From positions 1 through 64,000 of IMG/VR virus record IMGVR_UViG_3300032288_004617: DNA of 64,000 bases, one strand, 5' to 3'. The position numbers and the translations under genes are program-made. Shown here in pieces: positions 1,309-38,142 of this stretch. The notes under the pieces are model-generated. The model was not told the origin of the DNA. It saw nothing but the letters and a program-made list of their open reading frames with translations, and searched no databases. The DNA comes from a virus. Each line of letters begins with the position of its first letter. The stretch's first letter is position 1.

Positions 1309-4300
1309 CTACTCCTTTTTTGAATCAGGAGATAAGTTATATAATGTTGATTGATTAAAGAATCTATAAGAGTCTAATTGTGACTGTATATCTGTTAATT
1401 GTGTACCTCTTTTTAAGATGGTGTTCTTTCTAAACTTCTTACCAATCTCTGCAAAATCTCCTGTTGCTAAGTTACCTATTATTTGTACCGGCTCCATTGC
1501 TTCCAATGTTCTAATTGGAACTACAGGGTTTTTAACTACGTCAACTAATGTACCTGAAATACCGAACACTTGTTGAGAACTGTATTCAGAAACTGTCCTA
1601 ACATATGTGTATTGCATAAAGTCTTCAAAATAGCTGTCATCGTCATCATCTGCTCCTAGAATAGCTTCTCCTAATAAAAGTAATCCAATCCAAAGAGTTG
1701 ATTCAAATACTGATCTTCTTAAGTTATTCCTTTCAAACTGTTCTAAGTCTGCTTTGATTTCTTTAATAGATCTCCCTCCTTTTAAAGATTTAATAGCATC
1801 CCCCATAAATCTGGCCAATGTAGTGAAATGTCCTTCTTCAACTCTTCCCATAGAAACATTATATCCCCTTTTCTTAAATCTTTTAGTAAGTAAGATTGGA
1901 AGCCATCCTCTGTGCATCATTAATGTATTCGTTAATACATCTCGTTGTGCTGCAACTTGATCATATTCATTGATTACACCATCTGCCATCTGTGCTAAAG
2001 ATATTGCTCTTTGGGAAATTATAACATTTAGATTATCGAATTCCTCTTCAGGATTTTCAAACTTTGATTTAAACTTATCGTTAAAACTAATTCCCTTTTT
2101 ATCTACCTTTATATTCTCATATAAACTATCCTCAGCATATTTTGCCCATTCAGACTCTACAACAACTCTGGAAATTGATTTATCACTATTTCTTCTTAAA
2201 TTTAAGAATTGATCCCAGTTAACAAATTTTCCATCAACAAATCTGTAATCATTTAATACTGCTAAAAGTGATCTTGGACCAACAGGTATGTTAGCTAGTT
2301 TAGAAGTTTTGTATGCAGAATTTAACCCCATTCGGACCGCTCTTGAGTATGCAGAATCTTTTACTTTAGAATCAAAATCTTGTAAGCCATAAAACTCTAC
2401 TAAGTGATTAAGCACTGATGTTTTATTCATCTTTCCTGACTCTGTTAAATAGTCCGGCATTAAAGATATCAATTGTGACAATGCTTTATTAGCTGAACTT
2501 TTGTGGTAATAGTCTCCAGAAACTCTATCTGATATATTATTTAAAACTCCAGTGGTAGCAGACACTGCATCAACAAATGGATTAAATGCTAAGTTTGAGA
2601 ATCTTACGAAAGATTGAATTTTATTCACAGCTCTTGTTACATCTAACTCTCTTCCTCCAACAGTGATATGCATACTTCTAGTTTGTCTAACACCGTATAA
2701 GTGGTGACCAATATATTCTTTTGCATATTTTAAGTATTCAGAAGTTTGCCCTTTAATTTCAATTTTTCTTTTTGCTAAAACTCCACCTTTTGTTTGGAAA
2801 GTTTGATTAGCAATTGCAAATTCTAAAGCCTTGAAATCACTCTCTGCTTTTTGTCTTTCCTTATACAGAATTGCTTGTTTTAAATTAAGCATTGCTGCAT
2901 GAATTGTGTTCTCTGTTGCAGAATCAGGAGCTTCTAGTTTTGTTTGGAAGTATTTTGGTAGAACTTTTACACCTAAATCAGTTAGATTCTGTCCTTCAAT
3001 TTGTTCACCATAATCCTTATCATCAACTCTATTTTTTACAATCTCCCTGAAGAAATCTTTTACATCTAACTTTTGTAAATCTTCTATTACAGTTTTTGAC
3101 AATTGAGGTCTTTGGAATGGATTTAATGATCTCTCTTCTCCATACATTTCTGAAACAGATTTATTAACACCTACCATCATTTTAAGAAATTCAAATTCCT
3201 CTTTATTTTTAGTAGCTTCTAATTCCTCAAGATTCATAGTTGGATTAGCCATCCATTTCTTCATGTTAATTCCGTACTTATCAAAGAATTCTTTGTCTGC
3301 ATACTTATTAACCTTTGGTTGAACAAACTGACCTTCAGTCATATATTGATCATTCTTGAAATCATCTTTTCCAACATCCTTTAACCAAGTGTAATCAGGA
3401 CTAATCTCAACAAATTTAGCTGCAGGATACCTTGATTCCAATGAAGCTTTATCTGTTAACAACTGAGAAGCTGGTATTGTCCCATCTTCCAATGCATTCA
3501 TAAATTCAGAATAACCAATTGGTTCAAACCTTTGGTAATAAGAAGCAACATTTTCTTTAGCATATTCATACACTAAAAGTTCTTTAATCTCTTCTCTTAC
3601 TTTTAAGTCTCCATTTCTAAAGTCTTCCAACATTTGATCTGAAATCTTACCTTCATCAATTGCTTTTTGAATTCTAGACTCGTAATAATCTGTAGTGAAT
3701 TTTGTACCACCATTTAATAGATTATTTATTGCTCTAGAGAAAGTTGTTACTTTTCCTTGTCTTGAATTAGGAACATGTTGTAAAGCAAATTGTAATCTTC
3801 TATTTGTACCAAACTCTGTTAAATCTTTTTCATAAGCATCATTTGTAACTTTAATAGAAGTTCTCTCATCTTCTGAAGCTTCAAATGGGATATCTAAATA
3901 TGACTTATTTAAATCAATTTCATTCTCTATCTCTAACAATCTTGACTTTGTTAAAGGCTCAATATTTTGAGCATTTATCTCTAGAGAATTTTTATTATTT
4001 CTGTGTTGTTTTAATATTCCTGATTTAGAGGCTTGTAATTCTTTTATTCTATCAAGAACGTTTTGATTCTGCTCTCTTAATATATCGTCTTCAATTTCAT
4101 CTACAAACTCTTGTGCAGTTTGTTCGTAAGTTTTTCCATCCTTACCTTGATTATAAAAGTCCTCATTTAAGCTGATAGATGAATTCGACTGTAGCCACTC
4201 AAAAGAATTACCTCCTGCATTCTCAATATCAGATAACTCCTTTAAGAAAGAGTCAACTGCATCTGTAGTTCTTGTTGCATCCTTCAAATCAAATTTGTAA

Positions 4301-7062
4301 GACATAGATAGATTATTCATATCATAAGCTACTCTTGATTCATCTGAAAGCATATCTGCTGTAATACCATCTTCTAATACAACAAATGTAGAATTATCGT
4401 CAGCAGGAACTGCATCTTTAAACGGTAATGAATCAAATTGTGCTTGAGTCATTTCTGATCTCTTCATAATCTTTAGTCCAGGTTTAATTGAACCATTTTG
4501 ATCGAAAGCACTTCTATGTAATTTATATCTTAAATTTATTGCGTTCTCCTCAAACTTATCTGAATCAGACATTTTAGTTCTATCAATAAATCCATCCTTT
4601 GATCTAGCATTAGCAACCACCTTACTTCTATCTCTAGAAATAATAGCCATTACCTCTTGAGTATATTCAGATACATTTGCATCTTTATATTTTTTATCTC
4701 TCTCTTCGTAATATTCTTTTGTTCTAACTTGTTCAGTCATCCCATCTCTTGCTGCTTTAAAATCATTAAGGTAATCTTTTTTACCTTGTTCTGATTGAAT
4801 AAGCTGTGCAGGTTTAACTCCATTCTTTAAGGCTCTTCTAATTGCCTCCTCTTCCCTTCCAGAATGTTTTTTAACCAATTCAATCTGAATATTTAAATAA
4901 TCTTCATCATATAATGACTGATTGATTGGAGATAAGTAATAATAAGAACTTTTATTGTTATGTTTCTTTATGATTGTTTTCTGATATCTTTGTAAATTCT
5001 TATCAGAAATTTCTTGCAATAATTTATCCCCTTCTTTCTTTAATTGGATAGTTGTATTAATACCCATTTGTACTGCCTTTTGGTGCATTAATTGTACAAA
5101 TAAGTTTTTGTTTTGAGAAGCTAATCCAAACCACTTTGCCAACATACCAATATCAGCCAGATCAGAGTCCATTCTAGACTTTAAAGCATCTTTATCTTCC
5201 TCTGTTAAAGCTGAATTAGCTAATGCCTCATCTACCAATTCATTCACTTTTTTAGAGTAATCCTGGTCAACTAAAGGTCTTAACTTTGAGTGTTGTAAAA
5301 TTGTATCATCAATACCTCTTAAGATTTGTTCTTTGATATTTTGAGAAGTCTCTGATTCTATAGGTAAGTCCTCTAGTAATTTTCTAAGATTCTCTAATGA
5401 TGGTATTGAATTCTCTGTAATAGAATTAAAAATATTGCTATCTTGTTGTGTAATAGTTGTACCATTCTTATTTGCTGTTTTAATCCCATTAGAGACCTTA
5501 TTCAACAAAGTTGATGTAATACCTTTGATTGCACTTATTGATGTTAATACATCATTCTCTTTCATGTCATCAACTATTTTTTCTAAAGCTGATGAATCAG
5601 GAGAAGCTTGTTTTAAAACTGTTCCGTATAATGCATTGATAGCTGTTCTAGCCTTTTTCAACTCTGAAACAAGTTTCTTAGACTCTTTATCTGTTAAATC
5701 GTAAAAGAAGTTCTCACTTTTAAAATCTTTATTGAATACATCTTTACCGTTTAAAACTGCATCTGCTAAAGTTTCATTTAAACTATCGATTGTTTGTTTC
5801 TCGTAAGATCCGTAATTACCTCTCAAAAAGTTAGTGAAGTTTTCCCATAAAGTTTTCAATCTATCTAAGATTGTTTTATGCTCTTCTGTTTTACCGTCTT
5901 TACTAAATTTCTCAGAAATACTTTTCGCTAAGATTTTACCTAAAACTTCTTTTCTTACTTTCTCTTCTAATTCTAATCCTTCAGAAAATTTAGAATACTT
6001 TTCTCTATATGCTTCTGAAAATTCTGTATACTCCGGAGTCAAATGAACTAATGCTAAAGCAGAGGCAATTGAGTTCTGTTCAGAATAAGATTCTATTGCG
6101 ATGTGTGCAACCTCTTCTATAAGTTCTTTAGTGATATCTTTTCCTTCTGCTATAGCCACTACTTTATTTGCCATATCCGCAATTGCCGAAATATCAGGAT
6201 CTGTGCCATAAACAGTGTTGAATCTATTTCTATACTCTTCCAATGTTGATAAAGAAAATCCCATTGAATTTAAGAAGTTATAAAGAGAATCTTTTAACGC
6301 ATCCTTTTCTTTTTCGGAAATGGTTTCTTTTTCAGGGTTCAACTCTCTATTCACTCTGTCTAAAATAGATGCAGCTGAAATCAATTCTATTTTATTTTCA
6401 AACTGACTTCCTTTTTTCAACACTTCTGAAAAATGTAACAGTCCTTCCCCATCCTTAGATAAAGTGACAACATGATCTTCGTCAAATCTTAAATCTATTA
6501 AGCCATCATAATTAGGATAGATATTTCCTTTTGCTAACTCAACTCTTGCATCAAATGCTACACCTCTTGCAGAAGCTTTTCTTGACTCCTCATATTGTCC
6601 TTTTCCTTGATAAAAAGTCTCTCCACTTGGTGTCAATACTCTTTTCGTTGATAGTAATCCTGTTTGAACTTGAGATGTAAGGAATTTTGTTTTTATAGAG
6701 CTATCTGTATTAAATGTAGCAATAGGCATAAACTCATCTGTCGCAGGATTCTTAAACCCGATTGATGTGCTACCTAATTCATCTGATAAAATAAGATCCT
6801 CTAAATCTTCATACTCAACACCTTTTGATGATTTATAAAATAATTTAGGCTCTTTTGTATCATATACATTTTTAGAGGCATCTCTAAACATCTCCTCTAC
6901 ATTATCTGAATAAGCATTTGCAAATATGTCATAAGAGTTATTAGTACTACCTAAAAAGATATTACTATGTATTGCATCAAATAGTTTTGACTTCTCTCCT
7001 GTTGGAGTTGAAACAGAAACTATATTACCATTATCATTATACGTTATTAAACAATTACTCAT
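1309..7062 (-). CDS. Giant internal/ejected virion protein C (about 1917 aa) with zincin-like segment and C-terminal hydrophobic helix
   Basis: Long ORF. Start reassigned to MSNC at 7062 because it overlaps the upstream stop (ATGAGTAA). EEVAH...EVLG motif; TLWIGLLLLGEAILGADDDDD near the C-terminus. Last of the large genes downstream of the muzzle gene, as in crAss-like phages. Confidence 0.7.
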   Translation of the reverse strand: MSNCLITYNDNGNIVSVSTPTGEKSKLFDAIHSNIFLGSTNNSYDIFANAYSDNVEEMFRDASKNVYDTKEPKLFYKSSKGVEYEDLEDLILSDELGSTSIGFKNPATDEFMPIATFNTDSSIKTKFLTSQVQTGLLSTKRVLTPSGETFYQGKGQYEESRKASARGVAFDARVELAKGNIYPNYDGLIDLRFDEDHVVTLSKDGEGLLHFSEVLKKGSQFENKIELISAASILDRVNRELNPEKETISEKEKDALKDSLYNFLNSMGFSLSTLEEYRNRFNTVYGTDPDISAIADMANKVVAIAEGKDITKELIEEVAHIAIESYSEQNSIASALALVHLTPEYTEFSEAYREKYSKFSEGLELEEKVRKEVLGKILAKSISEKFSKDGKTEEHKTILDRLKTLWENFTNFLRGNYGSYEKQTIDSLNETLADAVLNGKDVFNKDFKSENFFYDLTDKESKKLVSELKKARTAINALYGTVLKQASPDSSALEKIVDDMKENDVLTSISAIKGITSTLLNKVSNGIKTANKNGTTITQQDSNIFNSITENSIPSLENLRKLLEDLPIESETSQNIKEQILRGIDDTILQHSKLRPLVDQDYSKKVNELVDEALANSALTEEDKDALKSRMDSDLADIGMLAKWFGLASQNKNLFVQLMHQKAVQMGINTTIQLKKEGDKLLQEISDKNLQRYQKTIIKKHNNKSSYYYLSPINQSLYDEDYLNIQIELVKKHSGREEEAIRRALKNGVKPAQLIQSEQGKKDYLNDFKAARDGMTEQVRTKEYYEERDKKYKDANVSEYTQEVMAIISRDRSKVVANARSKDGFIDRTKMSDSDKFEENAINLRYKLHRSAFDQNGSIKPGLKIMKRSEMTQAQFDSLPFKDAVPADDNSTFVVLEDGITADMLSDESRVAYDMNNLSMSYKFDLKDATRTTDAVDSFLKELSDIENAGGNSFEWLQSNSSISLNEDFYNQGKDGKTYEQTAQEFVDEIEDDILREQNQNVLDRIKELQASKSGILKQHRNNKNSLEINAQNIEPLTKSRLLEIENEIDLNKSYLDIPFEASEDERTSIKVTNDAYEKDLTEFGTNRRLQFALQHVPNSRQGKVTTFSRAINNLLNGGTKFTTDYYESRIQKAIDEGKISDQMLEDFRNGDLKVREEIKELLVYEYAKENVASYYQRFEPIGYSEFMNALEDGTIPASQLLTDKASLESRYPAAKFVEISPDYTWLKDVGKDDFKNDQYMTEGQFVQPKVNKYADKEFFDKYGINMKKWMANPTMNLEELEATKNKEEFEFLKMMVGVNKSVSEMYGEERSLNPFQRPQLSKTVIEDLQKLDVKDFFREIVKNRVDDKDYGEQIEGQNLTDLGVKVLPKYFQTKLEAPDSATENTIHAAMLNLKQAILYKERQKAESDFKALEFAIANQTFQTKGGVLAKRKIEIKGQTSEYLKYAKEYIGHHLYGVRQTRSMHITVGGRELDVTRAVNKIQSFVRFSNLAFNPFVDAVSATTGVLNNISDRVSGDYYHKSSANKALSQLISLMPDYLTESGKMNKTSVLNHLVEFYGLQDFDSKVKDSAYSRAVRMGLNSAYKTSKLANIPVGPRSLLAVLNDYRFVDGKFVNWDQFLNLRRNSDKSISRVVVESEWAKYAEDSLYENIKVDKKGISFNDKFKSKFENPEEEFDNLNVIISQRAISLAQMADGVINEYDQVAAQRDVLTNTLMMHRGWLPILLTKRFKKRGYNVSMGRVEEGHFTTLARFMGDAIKSLKGGRSIKEIKADLEQFERNNLRRSVFESTLWIGLLLLGEAILGADDDDDSYFEDFMQYTYVRTVSEYSSQQVFGISGTLVDVVKNPVVPIRTLEAMEPVQIIGNLATGDFAEIGKKFRKNTILKRGTQLTDIQSQLDSYRFFNQSTLYNLSPDSKKE

Positions 7063-7456
7063 CTTTATCATTATATATTTCAAAATCTTTAAACATCTGT
7101 TCAAAAGATTTTCGGTTTTTTATTATTACTTTTTGGTCTTTTTTTGTTTGAGTTATATCAAAGCTCGTAATACTAGCAGCATCCACTCTCTCTATCCAGT
7201 AGATATTACCCTCATGAGAGACTTTTTCGTGATGCAGTATTCTGTACAAAACCTTATACAATCCTGCTTCTATAATATCCCCATCATCCATTCTCTCTTT
7301 TAACCCAATAAAAGCCTTCCCTCTTATCTTGAAGATTGGTAGAGTTATCTTATTAATAACCATCTTAACTGAAGAAAGGGCCTCTAAGTTATTAAATGAC
7401 TTATCTACCCCTCCTCGTCTACTGGCCTTAAATACTATTTTATTTCCTTCTGACAT
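7055..7456 (-). CDS. Hypothetical protein (133 aa)
   Basis: ORF with its own upstream promoter and a stop overlapping the next ATG. Confidence 0.7.
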   Translation of the reverse strand: MSEGNKIVFKASRRGGVDKSFNNLEALSSVKMVINKITLPIFKIRGKAFIGLKERMDDGDIIEAGLYKVLYRILHHEKVSHEGNIYWIERVDAASITSFDITQTKKDQKVIIKNRKSFEQMFKDFEIYNDKDE

Positions 7457-7460
7457 GTTG

Positions 7461-7491
7461 CAAAAATAATAATAAAAAAGTTAATACCAAA
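7461..7491 (-). promoter_or_regulatory. Bacteroidota-type promoter (-33/-7), probably leaderless transcript
   Basis: Minus strand TTTG-N19-TATTTTTG, then CAAC-ATG. Confidence 0.7.
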
Positions 7492-7512
7492 AAATAAAAA
7501 AGATTTTCAATA

Positions 7513-9711
7513 CTATTTACAAGAATTAATTTTATCTTCTATGTTATCTTTATTTGAATAATTCTTAATGATGTTTAGATCTGAATAAATACTACCTTCA
7601 ATATTTAACCTTAAGTTATTTAAGTTGTCTTCAGTTGCCTCTACTGATATGCTACCCATTTCACCAAATAAAAGTTCTTTTTGGGAAGCTAATCCTGATT
7701 TTATGATAGCATCTTCTACTTCAGATGAATTAAAAATAGCAGTGGCAGGTAAAGTATTATATATATCTCCATTATGTTCAACCTTAACAAAAGCAGAAGC
7801 ATCTGATCTATCCATAACTCTTCTGTAAAGATTTTCTCCTAACCTAACGTAATTTTCAAAAGTCTTTTTTGTAATTACAATATTGTTATCCAATACATAT
7901 CTAGAAGTATAAGGTCTTAAATATTTTGGATTATTTACAATGATTTGATCTTCAGGAGTAATTTCAAAACTATCATCTAAAAGATGATCCATTTCATTAT
8001 CTCTTCTCAATGATATATAGTCCTTTAATTGATCCTCCATTTTAATGCCTTCAATAGAATCAACCCTTCCAACTAAGTTTATATCTGTATCAGAAATAGT
8101 GAATTTTGACAACACCTTTCTATAAACAGCAGAGTTTTTTAATTTTTCCTTTAAAGTGTAATTGTAAAAATCACTAACAAATTTTGATTTTAAGTATTCA
8201 AAGGAAGTTTTAATTCTACTAAGATTTTTCACTTTACTTTTAGCAAGTGGCTTATGTCCCCAAACAAGTTGACTCAAAGCAATCTCTTCTTGATATTTTT
8301 CTGAATAAATACCTGTATCTCTTGACATTACATATCTAGATAACTCTTTTAAGACCTCAATCTTATTTACAGGATCCTTAACATCTAATGTAGTTGGGAT
8401 AACCATATCCCCATCATACACCTTTTGGTATAAATACTCATAAAGACTGTCTCTTTGTCCTTCTTTAACTTTATGGTATAAATTATCTCCTATTTTTAAT
8501 AAAGAAAACCTATCGTACATAGTAGCTGGATCTAAAGGAGCTTCAACTCTAACTATACTTAAGTTCTTAAAGTTTGATCCTAATCTCAATACCTGCCCTT
8601 GTTTTTTAGTTGGTATTAGAATATCTTTTTGCTTAGAGAAATCTTCTATAGTTTGTTTATTAATATTAGCTAACATCCTTTCTGTAGCCCCTAACAAGTC
8701 TAATATATCAGCCTTTCTTCCAGGTTGGTTTGATAAACCTATTACATCAATATTAATATCAGCCAATTCACTTTCTATCTCCGATAAAACTTTAGTAACT
8801 AGTTTTGGATTATTTTTCCAAACCTCGTCAGAAATACCTTGAATAAAGTCAATATCAGCTTTTATAGCAACTGTGTCTAATCCATCTAACACCGTATTCT
8901 TTACAGTGGTATACGTAGAAAGATTATTTTTAGATATTACATTTCCCTCAATTGTAAATATAGGAACTCTCTTAAATTCATTTAATTGTGAATTCAATTT
9001 ACTTCTGAAACTCTTATTTGAATTATATTTATCAACAAAATCACTATAAGGTAGAGAGTTAACAGCCTCTTCTATAGATCTGTCATTTGAAAAGTCTTCT
9101 ACATTTTCTATAAGTTCTTCAATGATGTCAGATTCTGATACTCTTTCACTACTTCCTAATATTGTCTTAAAGCTAGAATTTATATGAGCTGCAGTCTTAC
9201 TTTCCGTAGGCTCTATTATAATATCTCCTTCAGATAATTCCCCTTCAATTCTTTCTAGTAGCTCTCTAATAGATTCTATATTTAAAGTCTCCAAGTCCTC
9301 ACTTGTATATAATCCAGATCGTATAGCTTCTTTTTCGTTAAGACCTAATATACCTTCCGATTTAAATATTCTAGTAAGCTTTGAATTAAGCTTTGATAGA
9401 CTAGAGATTGAGTGTGAATCCATTAAGTCTGTTAAAGACTTTTTATCTGCTCTTGATAATCTTTTACCTAAAGATGCATGAGTATCTAAAAACTTAAGAA
9501 CATCGTCTAGAGATGCCTCATCTTTATCATTCCTTGCATATTCATTTAAGAAATCATTTTCGTAAGCAGTCTTCCAAATATTAACTGCCTCTGACTCATT
9601 TCCCTCAGTCAAGATGAGAGCATCATTATATAATTGAGATGGAGTACCATCAGCATTAACTACTGAGATACTTCCATCAACTCTTGTTCTTAATCTACAA
9701 CTTAAACTCAT
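7513..9711 (-). CDS. Large internal virion protein B (732 aa)
   Basis: ORF between two giant genes. N-terminus resembles that of protein C. Cys only at residues 5 and 731. Confidence 0.65.
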   Translation of the reverse strand: MSLSCRLRTRVDGSISVVNADGTPSQLYNDALILTEGNESEAVNIWKTAYENDFLNEYARNDKDEASLDDVLKFLDTHASLGKRLSRADKKSLTDLMDSHSISSLSKLNSKLTRIFKSEGILGLNEKEAIRSGLYTSEDLETLNIESIRELLERIEGELSEGDIIIEPTESKTAAHINSSFKTILGSSERVSESDIIEELIENVEDFSNDRSIEEAVNSLPYSDFVDKYNSNKSFRSKLNSQLNEFKRVPIFTIEGNVISKNNLSTYTTVKNTVLDGLDTVAIKADIDFIQGISDEVWKNNPKLVTKVLSEIESELADINIDVIGLSNQPGRKADILDLLGATERMLANINKQTIEDFSKQKDILIPTKKQGQVLRLGSNFKNLSIVRVEAPLDPATMYDRFSLLKIGDNLYHKVKEGQRDSLYEYLYQKVYDGDMVIPTTLDVKDPVNKIEVLKELSRYVMSRDTGIYSEKYQEEIALSQLVWGHKPLAKSKVKNLSRIKTSFEYLKSKFVSDFYNYTLKEKLKNSAVYRKVLSKFTISDTDINLVGRVDSIEGIKMEDQLKDYISLRRDNEMDHLLDDSFEITPEDQIIVNNPKYLRPYTSRYVLDNNIVITKKTFENYVRLGENLYRRVMDRSDASAFVKVEHNGDIYNTLPATAIFNSSEVEDAIIKSGLASQKELLFGEMGSISVEATEDNLNNLRLNIEGSIYSDLNIIKNYSNKDNIEDKINSCK

Positions 9712-9723
9712 TGTTTATTTATT

Positions 9724-19012: not shown

Positions 19013-20492
19013 CTTTTTTCATTTTGTGCATTTTGCCTCCACATTTCATAGAGATAACCTCTTTCTTCATGTTTTTAAGTAAAGGTTTTACATCTTTCCT
19101 TTTTACAGTTTTACTTTTGACTGAACCATTGCCGTTTTCAAAATCTAGATTATAAGAAGGTTTCCCTTTAGAATAACCTGTAGTATCCATGGTTAAAATA
19201 GAGGCTCTATTACCTGATTTTGGATATTTAATTTGATAAACAGTTCCACTATTAGTTGCTACATAGGCACCTTTTGCCTGTTCACTACCTTTTTTTAAGT
19301 TATAGACTTGCTCTTTTGCGTACTTATTTGCTGGAACTTTTTTAATAGTTTTACCACCATCACCAAACTTTTTAACTGTCCCTACTTTTTTGACACCCTG
19401 TGCTTTTTTAATCTCGGAAGCTTTATTTATTCGTGTTTTAAGTTTAGCAAGCATTTCTGGATCCATGTCTTGAAGCTGTCCCTTTCTTACTCTAAAATTG
19501 ATAAGGTCTTGAGCAGTTTTAGCTCTTTCTAAAAATTGCTCTTGTCCTGCTTTTTTCATAGCTTGTCCTTGCATTTTCATAGCTAGACCTTTGTCTCTTC
19601 TTGCTATTCCCTCTTTTTTAAGTTGTGCAGCTGTCTTACCACCATCACCAAACTTTTTAATTGTACCTCCTTTTTTCTTCATAGGTATCTCACCTTCCAT
19701 CATACGCATCTTTTTAGATTCACCTTTTTCGTGTTTCATCATTGCTGACTTAGATGCATACTTCTCTCCTGTTTTTTTCTCAGATAAAAGTTTCCCTTTA
19801 AGTTTACCTATTTTCCCTCCTTTTTTCATATATTGTTTTATTTGTTTTTTTCTATAATCTTGGTTTTGTTTTTTAATCTTTTCTGCATATCCATCACTCA
19901 TCGCACTACTCTTAAGACCTTCAACAGTTTTCATTGCATCTTTTCTGCCTACTTCGTATCTAGTCACTTTAGTTGTAGTTTGTGCAGGTGTAACTCCTAA
20001 ATTTACTTTCTTAACAACAACAGGAAAACTCTTTTTCCCTGCAGCATATCCTACAGTGTCAATTGCATGTGAGAAGCTATCTCCCTCTAACCCCTTAGCA
20101 GTTTTTACAACAAGTCCTGATTTATCTGCTTTATATGTTTGTCCTGTACCTTTGTTTTCAGCTCTTGTAACCTTACCTTTGTTGTTAGTTGTCAGATAAA
20201 CGTCAGAAGAAGGTGACATTTTAGAGTTATTCAAATTAGATACATACCCTCCTTTATTTGGACTTTTTGAAACTGGTGCTGTAGTCTTTTTTTGTGCAGT
20301 CGTTGGTGTCTTTTCAACCTGTGCTACAGTTTTCTTTGGTACAGTTGCTTTACCTTTTGAAACAGGTGCTACAGTTTTCTTTGGTGCAAATACTTTACCT
20401 TTTGAAACCGGTGCTGCAGTTTTCTTTTGTGCAACCATTGGTGTCTTTGAAACAGGTTTTTTTGGTGTTGTTTTTGGGTATGGAGTTGCCAT
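18996..20492 (-). CDS. Lys-rich histone H1/Hc2-like internal protein (498 aa)
   Basis: K/P/A/V/T repeats (PKKTVAPVSKGK) and multiple MKKGG/FGDGG motifs. Confidence 0.65.
   Translation of the reverse strand: MATPYPKTTPKKPVSKTPMVAQKKTAAPVSKGKVFAPKKTVAPVSKGKATVPKKTVAQVEKTPTTAQKKTTAPVSKSPNKGGYVSNLNNSKMSPSSDVYLTTNNKGKVTRAENKGTGQTYKADKSGLVVKTAKGLEGDSFSHAIDTVGYAAGKKSFPVVVKKVNLGVTPAQTTTKVTRYEVGRKDAMKTVEGLKSSAMSDGYAEKIKKQNQDYRKKQIKQYMKKGGKIGKLKGKLLSEKKTGEKYASKSAMMKHEKGESKKMRMMEGEIPMKKKGGTIKKFGDGGKTAAQLKKEGIARRDKGLAMKMQGQAMKKAGQEQFLERAKTAQDLINFRVRKGQLQDMDPEMLAKLKTRINKASEIKKAQGVKKVGTVKKFGDGGKTIKKVPANKYAKEQVYNLKKGSEQAKGAYVATNSGTVYQIKYPKSGNRASILTMDTTGYSKGKPSYNLDFENGNGSVKSKTVKRKDVKPLLKNMKKEVISMKCGGKMHKMKKGGKKC
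20266..20445 (-). repeat. Degenerate 45-bp (15-aa) coding tandem repeat, about 4 copies
   Basis: GTGCT(A/G)(C/T)AGT...TTT(G/T)GT cores start at 20276, 20321, 20366 and 20411 on the plus strand. Confidence 0.8.
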
Positions 20493-25160: not shown

Positions 25161-26015
25161 TTAAGAAGCAGGCCCTATTGAAAAAAGACTCTCTGCTTGT
25201 TGTGCTTCAAATGGTAACTCTTGTTTATACATATCCATATTAACTTTACCAGCTTCTGTTGCTTTAGTATTTGGATCATCTGTATTATATGTTATTTTAC
25301 TTAAAGCTTGAATAAATCCATTCTTACTTTCTTCTTTAGCTAACTCCTGTCTTGCTGTAGAATTCTTCTCTTTTTCAATCTTAGCTGTCTCTATTTCAAG
25401 TTGTTTTCTAAATTCCTCTGTTGTCAAAGGTGTTCCATTTTCAGAAACATTTAAGACTTCAAAGCGAGATGCTGATTGTGGCATACTTCCTCTCTCTAAA
25501 TACCCTGTTGAATTATCACCACTGCCACTGGTATTATCTATTTTAACATCTATATTAGAGGGATTGTATATTTCAGTTGCGTATTTACCTCCATCAAAAC
25601 TTTTAAAAAACCCTTGTCTTTGAACACCTCTAACATTTTCATTAGCAGGGCTTTCCCATTCAGTTGTAAAATAGTATGAGGCTTGTTCAGGTGATTCAAA
25701 GTTTCTACTTAAATAAGCTTTAGAATTAGACTCACTTAAAGCATAGTCTATTTGTCCTTTCCAATTAGACATGTCTCCATTTAAATAATTAACTAGACCT
25801 TTTCTTCTTGGACCTGTGTGTTGGAATAGCCCAATACCTCCACCTCCGTTCTTGCCTCCTTCTGTAATTGAAGCATTGAAATTACTTTCGTATTTTATAT
25901 TCGCAAGCATACCTAATGCATGATTCTTAGATACCCCCTTTGATTGGAGGTAACTTAGAATCTCGTTAGGATCTACTGATCTATTAGCTACATCTTTTGC
26001 TCTTTCTGCTGCCAT
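25161..26015 (-). CDS. Virion-associated peptidoglycan hydrolase (phage tail lysozyme, Phage_lysozyme2-like)
   Basis: ALGMLANIKYESNFN...GIGLFQHTGPRR...GQIDYAL...FTTEWESPA. Confidence 0.85.
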   Translation of the reverse strand: MAAERAKDVANRSVDPNEILSYLQSKGVSKNHALGMLANIKYESNFNASITEGGKNGGGGIGLFQHTGPRRKGLVNYLNGDMSNWKGQIDYALSESNSKAYLSRNFESPEQASYYFTTEWESPANENVRGVQRQGFFKSFDGGKYATEIYNPSNIDVKIDNTSGSGDNSTGYLERGSMPQSASRFEVLNVSENGTPLTTEEFRKQLEIETAKIEKEKNSTARQELAKEESKNGFIQALSKITYNTDDPNTKATEAGKVNMDMYKQELPFEAQQAESLFSIGPAS

Positions 26016-35458: not shown

Positions 35459-36022
35459 CTAAGATATTTTAGTAATCTTACATACAGCATTTCTTGGATA
35501 TGTTGTAACCTTACTAGGAGTTGCAGATGCTTCTATTTTTATAGTGAATCCAGCAATAAGGTTAATTCTTGATGCAAACAGTTTAAAAGGTATTGATACA
35601 TTTGTCATTCCATTTGTAGAAATCTCTCTATTCACTGCAGCATTGTATGGAGAATTATTTACAAGTAACCTTAAATTTAATTTTCCTGTACTCGTACTAA
35701 ACATCTCTCCTACATATTCTATCTCATATTCACCATCTCCACCCAAAGGGACTGTATAAGTTGTTCCAGCCATAGTGTTATACACAGGAAAATTACCAGG
35801 GGTATTTGCACCTAATGCTTGTTCTGAATAGTATACTGTTTTTGATGTTATATTAGGTACAAGATTTCCTTCTAAATATTCCTCTATATTTAAGAAAACT
35901 GACTCTACTGAATCTCCTGTAACACTACCTATTAAAGGTAAATCTACTCCGGTGTAAACACATGGTTTATTAGTGGGAGTCGTTTGGGAGCATGGACACT
36001 CTATTGGAATATTTGTACACAT
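35459..36022 (-). CDS. Short fibre/decoration protein with Cys-rich N-terminal module and C1q/BclA-like beta C-terminus
   Basis: CVYTGVDL..GD.V..V module; YTVPLGGDGEYEIEY...INLIAGFTIKI. Confidence 0.5.
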   Translation of the reverse strand: MCTNIPIECPCSQTTPTNKPCVYTGVDLPLIGSVTGDSVESVFLNIEEYLEGNLVPNITSKTVYYSEQALGANTPGNFPVYNTMAGTTYTVPLGGDGEYEIEYVGEMFSTSTGKLNLRLLVNNSPYNAAVNREISTNGMTNVSIPFKLFASRINLIAGFTIKIEASATPSKVTTYPRNAVCKITKIS

Positions 36023-36075
36023 TATAAAATATTTTAAACTTTTTTATTATTCTTGTAAGTACTATATACTAAAAA

Positions 36076-37320
36076 TTAATTATAAACTCTGATTTCTAAA
36101 CTCGCATTATCTAAAGTGCTATCCCTTCCTATTGTTGAAGGATCATAGGTTCTTATAGCAACAACATCACCACTATTTCTTTTTGTATAACCAATTACTT
36201 GAGGATCTGTCAAACTTAATGTTAATTGAGAAAATGTTTTTGAAGCAGTAAAAGCACCTGTTAATGTTCCGCTATAAGTACCAGCTGAAGTTCTTGTCCA
36301 AACTATTGCACCAATTGTATTCTCTAAAACAGTCGCAGTAGGTGCAGCCGTTCCACTCTGAGAAATTAAAGCTGAATACACTTTGTAAGGTCTAAAATCT
36401 ACAGAAGGACCTGTAGCTCCTGTTGCCCCATTAGGAGTAAAGTCTACAACCAAAATATCACCTGATAAAAAACTACCTTCATTTTGAATTACAGTTACAT
36501 CTATGTGAGCTACTAAACCTACAGTAGAATAACCTGTAATTTTACCCATCCAAAAGTTAGTTTCGTCAGAGTTAGCATTATAAATTTTTAGTAATCCATA
36601 GTAATTAGTGCCACCAATGTTGTTTGAGAAAGCAGCTAAAAAATCTACCATATCAATGTTGACATTATTATTAAAGTTAATATAAACTTTAGTAGCAAAA
36701 CCTGGAACACTATTATCAAAATTGAGGTTTGTTGGTAACGGAGTAGCACTCGTTCCTGCCTGAAATATCCATTTACTAGACCATCCACCTGGAACACCGT
36801 CTATACCATTTGTTCCATTTGTTCCATTTACACCTGGGGCACCTGCAGGACCTATTAAAGATATTCCAGATCCCCAAACACCAGAAACTTTTGGTCCATA
36901 TAAAATATGAGTTACATTATCAATGTAGTAATCCCCATTAGAACCATTGTATATTTCAGGAGCCACATTTCCACTAAGAATAGTGTTTCCATTTAATCCA
37001 TTAGCTCCAGTTGCTCCTGTACAAACGTACTGAGTTGTCATTATTAAATTCGTATCTCCATTAACAAGATCAATCCTCACTCCACCATAAGCACAGTTTG
37101 GACCTGGAGCTTCTTGTTGTAGATTGAAATAGTTAGCAGAGCTTACTTCACAATACTTAGCGTTTATTTTAGTAAGTACATCTGATAAAAGATTTCCACT
37201 AATAACATCTATACAAGATAAACTCTCTCCAGAATATCTCACACATCCAGCATCTACTTCAAAGGCACATCCACATGTTGACTCTGCACATGCTGTTGTT
37301 GTATTTGTACAATTACACAT
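36076..37320 (-). CDS. Fibre protein with collagen-like G-X-Y segments
   Basis: GATGANGLNG, GPAGAPGVNGTNGTNGIDGVPG; Cys-rich N-terminus; C-terminal YKVYSALISQSGTAAP...WTRTSAGTY domain. Confidence 0.75.
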   Translation of the reverse strand: MCNCTNTTTACAESTCGCAFEVDAGCVRYSGESLSCIDVISGNLLSDVLTKINAKYCEVSSANYFNLQQEAPGPNCAYGGVRIDLVNGDTNLIMTTQYVCTGATGANGLNGNTILSGNVAPEIYNGSNGDYYIDNVTHILYGPKVSGVWGSGISLIGPAGAPGVNGTNGTNGIDGVPGGWSSKWIFQAGTSATPLPTNLNFDNSVPGFATKVYINFNNNVNIDMVDFLAAFSNNIGGTNYYGLLKIYNANSDETNFWMGKITGYSTVGLVAHIDVTVIQNEGSFLSGDILVVDFTPNGATGATGPSVDFRPYKVYSALISQSGTAAPTATVLENTIGAIVWTRTSAGTYSGTLTGAFTASKTFSQLTLSLTDPQVIGYTKRNSGDVVAIRTYDPSTIGRDSTLDNASLEIRVYN

Positions 37321-37343
37321 ATTAGTTTTTTAAATATTATTTA

Positions 37344-37670
37344 TTATAATTTTATTCTAAGAAATCCGTTTGTATCTTTATAAGGCTTGCCTGTCAAAAG
37401 TCCTGCAGTAGCTGCAGCCGTTTCATCAGCATACACCGGAAGAGTTGTCAAATCAATAGTCTTTGAAAACTGTTGATTGATAACTTGCATCTTTAACATT
37501 ATTTTACTAATAACAGATGTAAGAGTTTCTCCAATAGCTATTCCAAAAAAAGTGTATGCGTTTTTAGTCACAACACATTCAGTACTGATTAATGAACTGC
37601 ATTCAACAGATGTATCGTCAACTGCAGGTTTTGTTATTTCTTTACAGTTTGTTGATTTTGTAATTCCCAT
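37344..37670 (-). CDS. Small Cys-containing structural protein (108 aa)
   Basis: Shares the CV...G...GE.LT.V module; LPVYADETAAATAGL tail. Confidence 0.55.
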   Translation of the reverse strand: MGITKSTNCKEITKPAVDDTSVECSSLISTECVVTKNAYTFFGIAIGETLTSVISKIMLKMQVINQQFSKTIDLTTLPVYADETAAATAGLLTGKPYKDTNGFLRIKL

Positions 37671-37674
37671 TATA

Positions 37675-38142
37675 TTAAGGTTGAAGATTATCTAACATTA
37701 TTTGTAATAACTCTTGTAAGTTAGCCGGCTGATTTCCACAAGCATCTACTAATACACCGTAGTCTAAATTTAAACAAGCGATGTTATCAGAGAATATTTT
37801 TGGACAGTCTGTACAATCAGGTGATCCAGAACAGTCATCACATTTCATTCCAATGAATGCCATAACCTCTTCTAACTTCTGCTCTAAGCCTATAATAGCT
37901 GCACTAACTGTTAAAGGATTAGCACCATTATTGAAATCTATACATTGACTAGTTAAAGCTGTTAAATCAGTATTTGCTTTTAACTCATCAAGTCCATCAT
38001 TAATATCTTCTATAACATCTTGAACTGAAAGACAGTTATCAGGATCTAATCCTGTATCATCTCTTAAAATCCCTTCATAGTCTACACAAATAGATGACGA
38101 TCTCTTACCACATCTATTTGATATTTTATCTCTACAACTCAT
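37675..38142 (-). CDS. Cys-rich structural/adaptor protein (155 aa)
   Basis: Many Cys; CVDYEG module; CDDCSGSPDCTDC. Confidence 0.55.
   Translation of the reverse strand: MSCRDKISNRCGKRSSSICVDYEGILRDDTGLDPDNCLSVQDVIEDINDGLDELKANTDLTALTSQCIDFNNGANPLTVSAAIIGLEQKLEEVMAFIGMKCDDCSGSPDCTDCPKIFSDNIACLNLDYGVLVDACGNQPANLQELLQIMLDNLQP

Follow-up and report, generated by a model that had tools for sequence, protein, structure and literature searches.

In the cyanopodophage A4 (Anabaena phage A-4L), cryo-electron microscopy places the C-terminal helix of gp27 within gp26 and reveals a disulfide between Cys1715 of the former and Cys5 of the latter (PMC12002296, PNAS 2025; here and below, statements on cited papers refer to the parts of them that were available). 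The corresponding record of A-4L contains gp27 (1,717 amino acids, aa) and gp26 (1,114 aa) as products of tandem genes, with Cys1715 and Cys5, respectively, as their sole cysteines. Here we describe three genes, A, B and C, in a 64,000-nucleotide (nt) stretch of viral DNA (IMG/VR record IMGVR_UViG_3300032288_004617, positions 1 to 64,000; hereafter 'the window'). Their products resemble the A4 pair in having a tail cysteine in the upstream protein, a cysteine at about residue 5 of the downstream protein and otherwise cysteine-free consecutive proteins. We propose that the virion carries A, B and C as cargo proteins that would be joined end-to-end, in the order A-B-C, by disulfide couplers between tail and head cysteines, and give this reading a probability of roughly 0.7. 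A4 has one such junction, whereas the window would have a three-member chain. A4 is a podophage apparently unrelated to the window phage, and such a cysteine pair forms a disulfide in its virion. The kind of bond itself is known from A4, where the paper, in its available text, assigns it a local role in stabilising a pentameric ring and states no general rule, cysteine depletion or fusion behaviour (PMC12002296).

A second comparison is offered by a trio of proteins of crAss-like phages (gp67, gp66 and gp65 of phi14:2; gp47, gp49 and gp50 of crAss001), which shares gene order and terminal-cysteine pattern with the window and whose homologues have been annotated or reported, from proteomics, as virion proteins (PMC10172136). 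The middle protein gp66 is a virion RNA polymerase (PDB 6VR4) with a DFDxD loop, whereas B of the window lacks this motif. The word 'cysteine' is absent from the available part of the phi14:2 preprint (bioRxiv 10.1101/2020.03.07.982082), and that of PMC10172136 contains nothing on cysteines in the crAss001 cargo.

Two further systems deliver their parts in one piece. The virion RNA polymerase of phage N4 is a single 'beads-on-a-string' ejection protein of ~3,500 residues, thought to pass unfolded through the tail, and how the three crassvirus proteins relate to the N-terminal domain, core and C-terminal domain of the N4 protein is a question raised in the same 2026 paper (PMC13434306). Like N4, the window chain would be a very long injected polypeptide of loosely connected parts; in N4, however, it is one peptide chain, whereas the separate gene products of the window would join after translation. 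Polyvalent proteins follow the same logic of joint delivery of several activities and their later separation (Iyer et al. 2017, PMC5512222). In the polyvalent model a zincin-like peptidase cuts one polypeptide, whereas in the window links between polypeptides would be reduced; the word 'cysteine' is absent from the available part of that paper.

Terminal cysteines and identity of A, B and C

The genes A, B and C and a small open reading frame (ORF) between B and C are co-directional, all on the minus strand. Gene A (9724..15585, 1953 aa), the putative first chain member, has no N-terminal cysteine and ends in a Lys/Ser-rich linker (9727..9861, minus strand; ...TSALYAC) of which Cys1953, the last residue and sole cysteine of the protein, is encoded by TGT at 9727-9729, followed by TAA. 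Gene B (7513..9711, 732 aa) would be the middle member. Its head module (residues 1-62; 9526..9711, minus strand), with two strands and three helices, carries Cys5 (codon 9697-9699), and its tail (residues 679-732; 7516..7677, minus strand) ends in ...INSCK with the penultimate Cys731 (codon 7519-7521); B has no other cysteine. Gene C (1309..7062, 1917 aa from the ATG at 7062), the putative last member, starts with a head module (residues 1-61; 6880..7062, minus strand) that contains its sole cysteine, Cys4 (codon 7051-7053), and lacks a C-terminal one.

A, B and C thus have four cysteines in 4,602 residues, each at most five residues from a terminus. The remaining 36 ORFs of the window contain 167 cysteines in 15,710 residues (1.06%), a rate at which ~49 would be expected in the three proteins. 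The original prediction had started from this scarcity, from the placement of the four cysteines and from the absence of an N-terminal one in A and a C-terminal one in C, and a codon-by-codon check bore out each of these points.

If C were translated from an alternative TTG start (7104), it would gain one cysteine. Judged by its context, ATG 7062 is the correct start, because the stop codon of the small ORF overlaps it (ATGAGTAA), the TTG extension contains no cysteine in L003, a 79%-identical relative, and all 48 head-bearing C homologues start with M-x(1-3)-C. The small ORF (7055..7456, minus strand; 133 aa, no cysteine), which was absent from the original account, is kept in L003 and has no Pfam or PHROG match. 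In Cellulophaga phage phi4:1 the small gene gp036 lies in the same place but looks unrelated, and in many IMG/VR loci the B-C interval is a gap of 400-800 nt.

Pfam yielded nothing for A, B or C, and phmmer searches of the three against PDB sequences gave nothing meaningful. A matched PHROG 32390 and C matched PHROG 37651, the C family being a virion structural protein by its PHROGs name. The nearest named phages are the Cellulophaga phages phi4:1 and phi17:2 (~22% identity), which share the order gp038-gp037-gp036-gp035; A is a homologue of phi4:1 gp038 and C of phi4:1 gp035. Three phi4:1 products (gp035, gp037 and gp038) are annotated as found in the virion by tandem mass spectrometry (MS/MS), and g065-g067 of phi14:2 are likewise annotated as found by MS/MS. 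Profile comparison by hhalign aligned the A family with phi14:2 gp67 (probability 97.8%, E 1.2e-12, 343 columns, A 59-481 vs 54-402) and the C family with phi14:2 gp65 (98.1%, E 7.4e-14, 526 columns, C 1296-1860 vs 776-1363), and tblastn matches of C include crAss 'RNA-polymerase subunit' genes. By these homologies, A, B and C are the phi4:1-like counterpart of the crAss-like gp67/gp66/gp65 trio. They are probably packed in the phage particle, and the label 'ejection proteins' is carried over from the annotated virion proteomics of their phi4:1 and phi14:2 homologues.

In the N-terminal domain common to A and gp67, residues 172-194 of A (15004-15072, minus strand; VAGGLAFVGGALLPDIAIGIATG) form a glycine-rich segment, which provides the only strongly hydrophobic 19-residue stretches in A, B or C and may insert in a membrane. 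C has a conserved EEVAH..E motif at residues 316-324 and, at residues ~1791-1811 (~1630-1690, minus strand), a hydrophobic stretch that leads into five consecutive, conserved Asp (..LGEAILGADDDDDSY..). The C family varies little or not at all at D1806, D1808 and D1809, and the Asp run is aligned with a D/E-rich stretch of phi14:2 gp65.

B occupies the slot held by the RNA polymerase in crAss-like phages. A D[FYW]DxD polymerase motif was found in no long ORF of the window, B included, and in one of 67 long B-family proteins. The similarity to gp66 is confined to the first ~50 residues of B and gives a weak alignment (hhalign probability 3.9%, E 0.011). The confident structural model of B (predicted local distance difference test, pLDDT, 84.1) showed no clear known fold, Foldseek/VIA returning a weak 6vr4 row (E 0.024; Z 5.0) and generic helical bundles. 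In this model residues 679-716 fall below 50, suggesting that the B tail, whose last ~50 residues are mostly of low confidence, is probably flexible.

A profile search of 1.84 billion representatives found 459 relatives of B; the family statistics given here and below refer to the best 150 of these 459 matches. Lengths range from ~250 to 3,072 aa, with full-length forms of ~700 aa or more, and the ~700-residue B core is mostly N-terminal. In five of eight long members scanned (P0130, P0141, P0162, P0211 and P0217), the core is followed by LPD23, ART-PolyVal, Kinase-PolyVal, GNAT or LRR_5 (BspA-type) domains. B of the window has no polyvalent or any other Pfam domain and by this comparison represents the core alone of a family with polyvalent proteins among its members. 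Variable payloads seem to be carried in the middle position of the chain (RNA polymerase in crAss-like phages; kinase, ART or GNAT in B relatives). Locus searches with B alone and with alignment A1 found no relatives in viral contigs; with alignment A1, genome contigs likewise gave none and metagenome contigs gave one locus, L003.

Conservation of the cysteines and head modules

The original prediction had proposed to look for the terminal cysteines in relatives, and they proved to be conserved in all three families. In the A family (55 matches, 26-100% identity over the last 554 residues), a cysteine stands 0-3 residues from the end in 55/55 and is the sole one in 54, with 56 cysteines in 104,210 residues overall. 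Among 49 C matches, 48 have a cysteine at residue 3-5, which is the sole one in 42 and is accompanied by one other in six. B-family proteins have one in residues 3-7 (143/150), in the last four residues (133/150) or in both places (127/150); the exceptions are mostly fragments, and internal cysteines amount to 20 in 192,489 residues. C1953 is invariant in an alignment of 47 A proteins. In 36 B proteins (21-81% identity) the invariant columns are C5, D322, I544 and C731, and in 31 C N-termini they are M1, C4 and S25 only. The sequence around the tail cysteine varies freely in the A and B families, and the head modules have conserved positions other than cysteine, e.g. S25, L27 and F28.

We also asked whether the four cysteines occur together in the same genomes. 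With the C-family alignment, 80 IMG/VR loci were found; they fell into 32 lineages at 90% identity of C, and their termini were read with local hidden Markov models (HMMs) for A tail, B core and C. At readable termini, the cysteine was present in all lineages (C head 31/31, B head 24/24, B tail 30/30, A tail 20/20; 19 of the A-tail cysteines lie within three residues of the end and one at five). All four were found in 20/20 lineages in which all four termini were readable. Of 244 other ORFs in the same loci (uncurated, both strands), 16 carry a cysteine between residues 2 and 8, and 12 carry one among the final four. The terminal positions could in principle be a chance or compositional artefact of cysteine-poor proteins, and the whole block 1309-26015 is indeed poor in cysteine. 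This explanation is refuted by the invariance of the positions across families at 20-45% identity and by their co-occurrence in 20/20 lineages against the low baseline, and we regard its probability as negligible: the cysteine pattern is not due to chance.

The two heads were compared by hhalign of 146 B and 47 C sequences, which gave a probability of 98.4% (E 4.5e-15, columns 3-60 vs 2-61) with the cysteines aligned, and their models have the same secondary structure of two strands and three helices. By this profile match the B and C heads are homologous, as the original prediction had suspected from the likeness of the two N-termini. Beyond these sequences, the head profile matches the N-termini of phi4:1 gp035 and several C-like proteins of crAss phages. 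Foldseek found nothing at E ≤ 0.001 for the C N-terminal model. For the A4 pair gp27-gp26, no resemblance in sequence or fold to the heads, B or C emerged: no 9K2V or 9K3A chain was among the Foldseek rows shown, the head HMM had no match in A4L_26, and PDB sequences searched with the profiles of alignments A5 and A2 (B) gave no match at E up to 10. Predicting the complex of the A tail (1800-1953, A-family alignment) with the B head (1-130, B alignment) gave interaction prediction scores from aligned errors (ipSAE) of 0.04 and 0.03 (mark 0.32), values that weigh neither for nor against docking. Charge complementarity between heads (~+1), B tails (~-1.1) and A tails (~0) was considered and found too weak.

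The same alignments bear on a metal bridge, in which the terminal cysteines together with other ligands would bind Zn or Fe in the manner of a zinc clasp or hook. Cysteine is the commonest intermolecular metal ligand, an acidic residue often stands two positions before the B-tail cysteine (D at -2 in 75/137 tails), and the original prediction allowed for such a bridge. However, each terminus has a single cysteine, and the alignments contain no conserved His or second cysteine near heads or tails. Lineages with a single junction have two cysteines only, which excludes a four-cysteine site common to all termini, and the A4 map was read as a disulfide by its authors (PMC12002296). A metal bridge is thus unlikely.

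Some neighbouring genes of the window also have unusual cysteine distributions. The block 1309-26015 (minus strand) comprises ten nearly cysteine-free ORFs (counts 0, 0, 0, 0, 2, 1, 1, 2, 0 and 1), whereas ORFs beyond it have up to 1-7% cysteine; several ORFs at 35459-38142 have their cysteines bunched in the first 40 residues. At the upstream edge of the block, the product of 25161-26015 (minus strand; 284 aa) has a phage tail lysozyme domain (PF18013, E 8.5e-21). Two basic ORFs at 18996-20492 (498 aa) and 18722-19012 (96 aa), both on the minus strand, end in cysteine (...KKGGKKC and ...KKWNC). They were considered as coupler parts, but the homologous end in L003 is ...RLARKK, without cysteine, and they probably do not belong to the coupler.

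Gene fusions and the proposed coupler

In five IMG/VR loci of three lineages (L028; L038, L039 and L041; L042), A and B form one ORF. It has 2,208-2,402 codons in the four full-length loci; in L038 it runs off the edge of the locus with 1,629 codons present. In the fused proteins the A profile stops at ~550-558 of ~600 and the B profile starts at 68-86, a few residues on. The A linker with its cysteine and the ~60-residue B head are therefore missing. The fused protein has exactly one cysteine, which is C-terminal, and C retains its head cysteine. Similar cases occur in other phages. Flavobacterium phage FpV4 gp32 is a 4,287-aa fusion with a polymerase motif and a sole cysteine at the penultimate position 4286, and gp33 begins with MAC (Cys3). 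In cr55_1, a 4,551-aa fusion has Cys4026 and Cys4548, and the next protein has Cys5.

The phi14:2 preprint notes, in its available part, that such fusions exist and supposes that they are cleaved (bioRxiv 10.1101/2020.03.07.982082). The terminal elements could be packaging or processing signals left from a polyprotein, or each could be an independent anchor to the portal, the capsid interior, the DNA end or a lipid. Other phages are known to have N-terminal capsid-targeting peptides. Processing signals, however, would be expected to be kept in fused proteins and to be dispensable in split ones, and the opposite was observed: the joint loss of tail and head at the fused junction is what a coupler predicts. 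Paired loss is not expected of independent anchors either, and A, which is headless, still has homologues annotated as virion proteins. We consider both anchors and signals improbable.

Ligation chemistries that use terminal cysteines were also considered. An intein, trans-splicing or native chemical ligation was rejected by inference, since the cysteines stand at variable positions 3-7 and 0-8 residues from the termini and no intein-like domain adjoins them. Prenylation, considered for a CaaX-like ending in cr128_1, is a eukaryotic modification and was likewise rejected by inference.

The coupler that we propose would work as follows. The upstream protein would end in a flexible tail with a cysteine 0-3 residues from the C-terminus, and the downstream protein would start with a head module of ~60 residues with a cysteine at residue 3-7. 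Once the particle is outside the cell and oxidised, an intermolecular disulfide would form between the tail cysteine and the next head cysteine. A, B and C would in this way become a single chain of ~4,600 residues. With links at the very ends of the proteins, it would stay linear and unbranched, could be packed at a fixed 1:1:1 stoichiometry and could leave the capsid and pass the tail as one thread. Other cysteines would be selected against, as internal cross-links would block passage, and reduction in the host cytoplasm would separate A, B and C. crAss001 virions hold structural disulfides (PMC10172136), so that particles of the wider group are oxidised.

Alternatively, the proteins might dock without any covalent bond, the cysteines serving in redox sensing or being transiently reactive. 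Assembly occurs in a reducing cytoplasm, and the heads are folded domains with the conserved non-cysteine positions mentioned above, both of which fit docking alone. Against it, the cysteine is the most conserved position while the tail sequence around it varies, the near-total purge of other cysteines fits the avoidance of wrong disulfides, and a covalent bond was seen in A4 (PMC12002296). Docking alone is in our view a doubtful explanation.

Several observations weigh against the disulfide coupler or limit its form. Since the host cytoplasm is a reducing environment, disulfide formation would have to take place within the capsid or follow lysis, and some non-covalent docking must therefore precede the bond. 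Pairing of head with head and tail with tail would also predict equal cysteine counts, although the fusions and the A4 structure disfavour it. The head profile detects nothing in crAss001-type RNA polymerases, phi14:2 gp65, FpV4 gp33, phi4:1 gp037 or A4 gp26; the common element is the cysteine position, not always the head module. In the C family, P0114 has no cysteine at all, but may be mis-started. Seven of the 150 B-family proteins (P0127, P0199, P0200, P0201, P0209, P0211 and P0212) carry one to five copies of a ~60-aa repeat (GGKW..V.E.KG.SH..GGVD...GL.I) after the tail cysteine, which stands in a motif ..eG.PC and then lies 61-297 residues from the end; the repeat had no Pfam match in the three of these proteins that were scanned. 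In crAss001-type RNA polymerases the tail cysteine is 7-8 residues from the end, and one to four internal cysteines are tolerated in the gut csAssE-Sib clade and in crAss RNA polymerases. Finally, gp34 of cr52_1 (L008), a 4,464-aa fusion of A and the polymerase, retains a head-like segment with Cys2308 at the presumed junction and has other cysteines. cr52_1 is a recoded crassvirus, in which the gp34 gene has in-frame stops under table 11.

Taken together, the invariance of the cysteines, their co-occurrence in 20/20 lineages, the fusions and the A4 precedent lend comparative support to the original prediction that each tail cysteine meets the next head module. On this comparative ground the pairing A-B-C appears strongly supported and an end-to-end tether, probably a disulfide, well supported; the bond chemistry in the window lineage, the threading and the reductive release are what we infer beyond it.

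Breadth across phages and meaning

The terminal-cysteine rule extends to several named phages. In phi4:1, gp038 has Cys1957 of 1957 residues, gp037 has cysteines at 4 and 516 of 517, and gp035 has Cys3. In phi14:2, the sole cysteine of gp67 is residue 1797 of 1797, the RNA polymerase gp66 has Cys3 and Cys2179 of 2180 exactly, and gp65 has Cys3 as its sole one. The rule also holds in csAssE-Sib and in cr128_1, PhiCrAssBcn1 and DAC15, where the A-like gene is on the opposite strand. A literature search found no paper that states such a rule for crAss-type or phi4:1-type cargo. New here are the chain in a lineage outside Crassvirales with a middle member that is not a polymerase, the 459 representatives of the B family and their variable payloads, and the fusions that physically delete tail and head modules.

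More tentatively, and at less than even odds, the head and tail cysteine couplers may be a general modular device of podophages, a 'protein train' found in Crassvirales, phi4:1-like and FpV4-like phages and, by convergence, in A4-like phages. In such a train a tail-only starter would be followed by extenders, which have both head and tail, and by a head-only terminator, with room for any number of cargo proteins. Its members would be linked once assembly is complete, leave the particle as one thread and come apart on reduction in the host cytoplasm. If this is true, the train would be a redox-gated alternative to the proteolysis of polyvalent proteins and a functional equivalent of the giant polymerase chain of N4.

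crAss-like phages are the most abundant viruses of the human gut. Their cargo proteins are not visible in the crAss001 atlas, as far as its available part describes it (PMC10172136). Our findings bear on the storage and delivery of cargo protein, more than half a megadalton of it, in these phages and in marine phages related to them. The proposed coupler, if true, would explain the fixed stoichiometry of the cargo, its order of ejection and the near absence of cysteine in such huge proteins, as well as the frequent fusion and fission of genes in the cargo module, and the single structural observation in A4 would become a rule.

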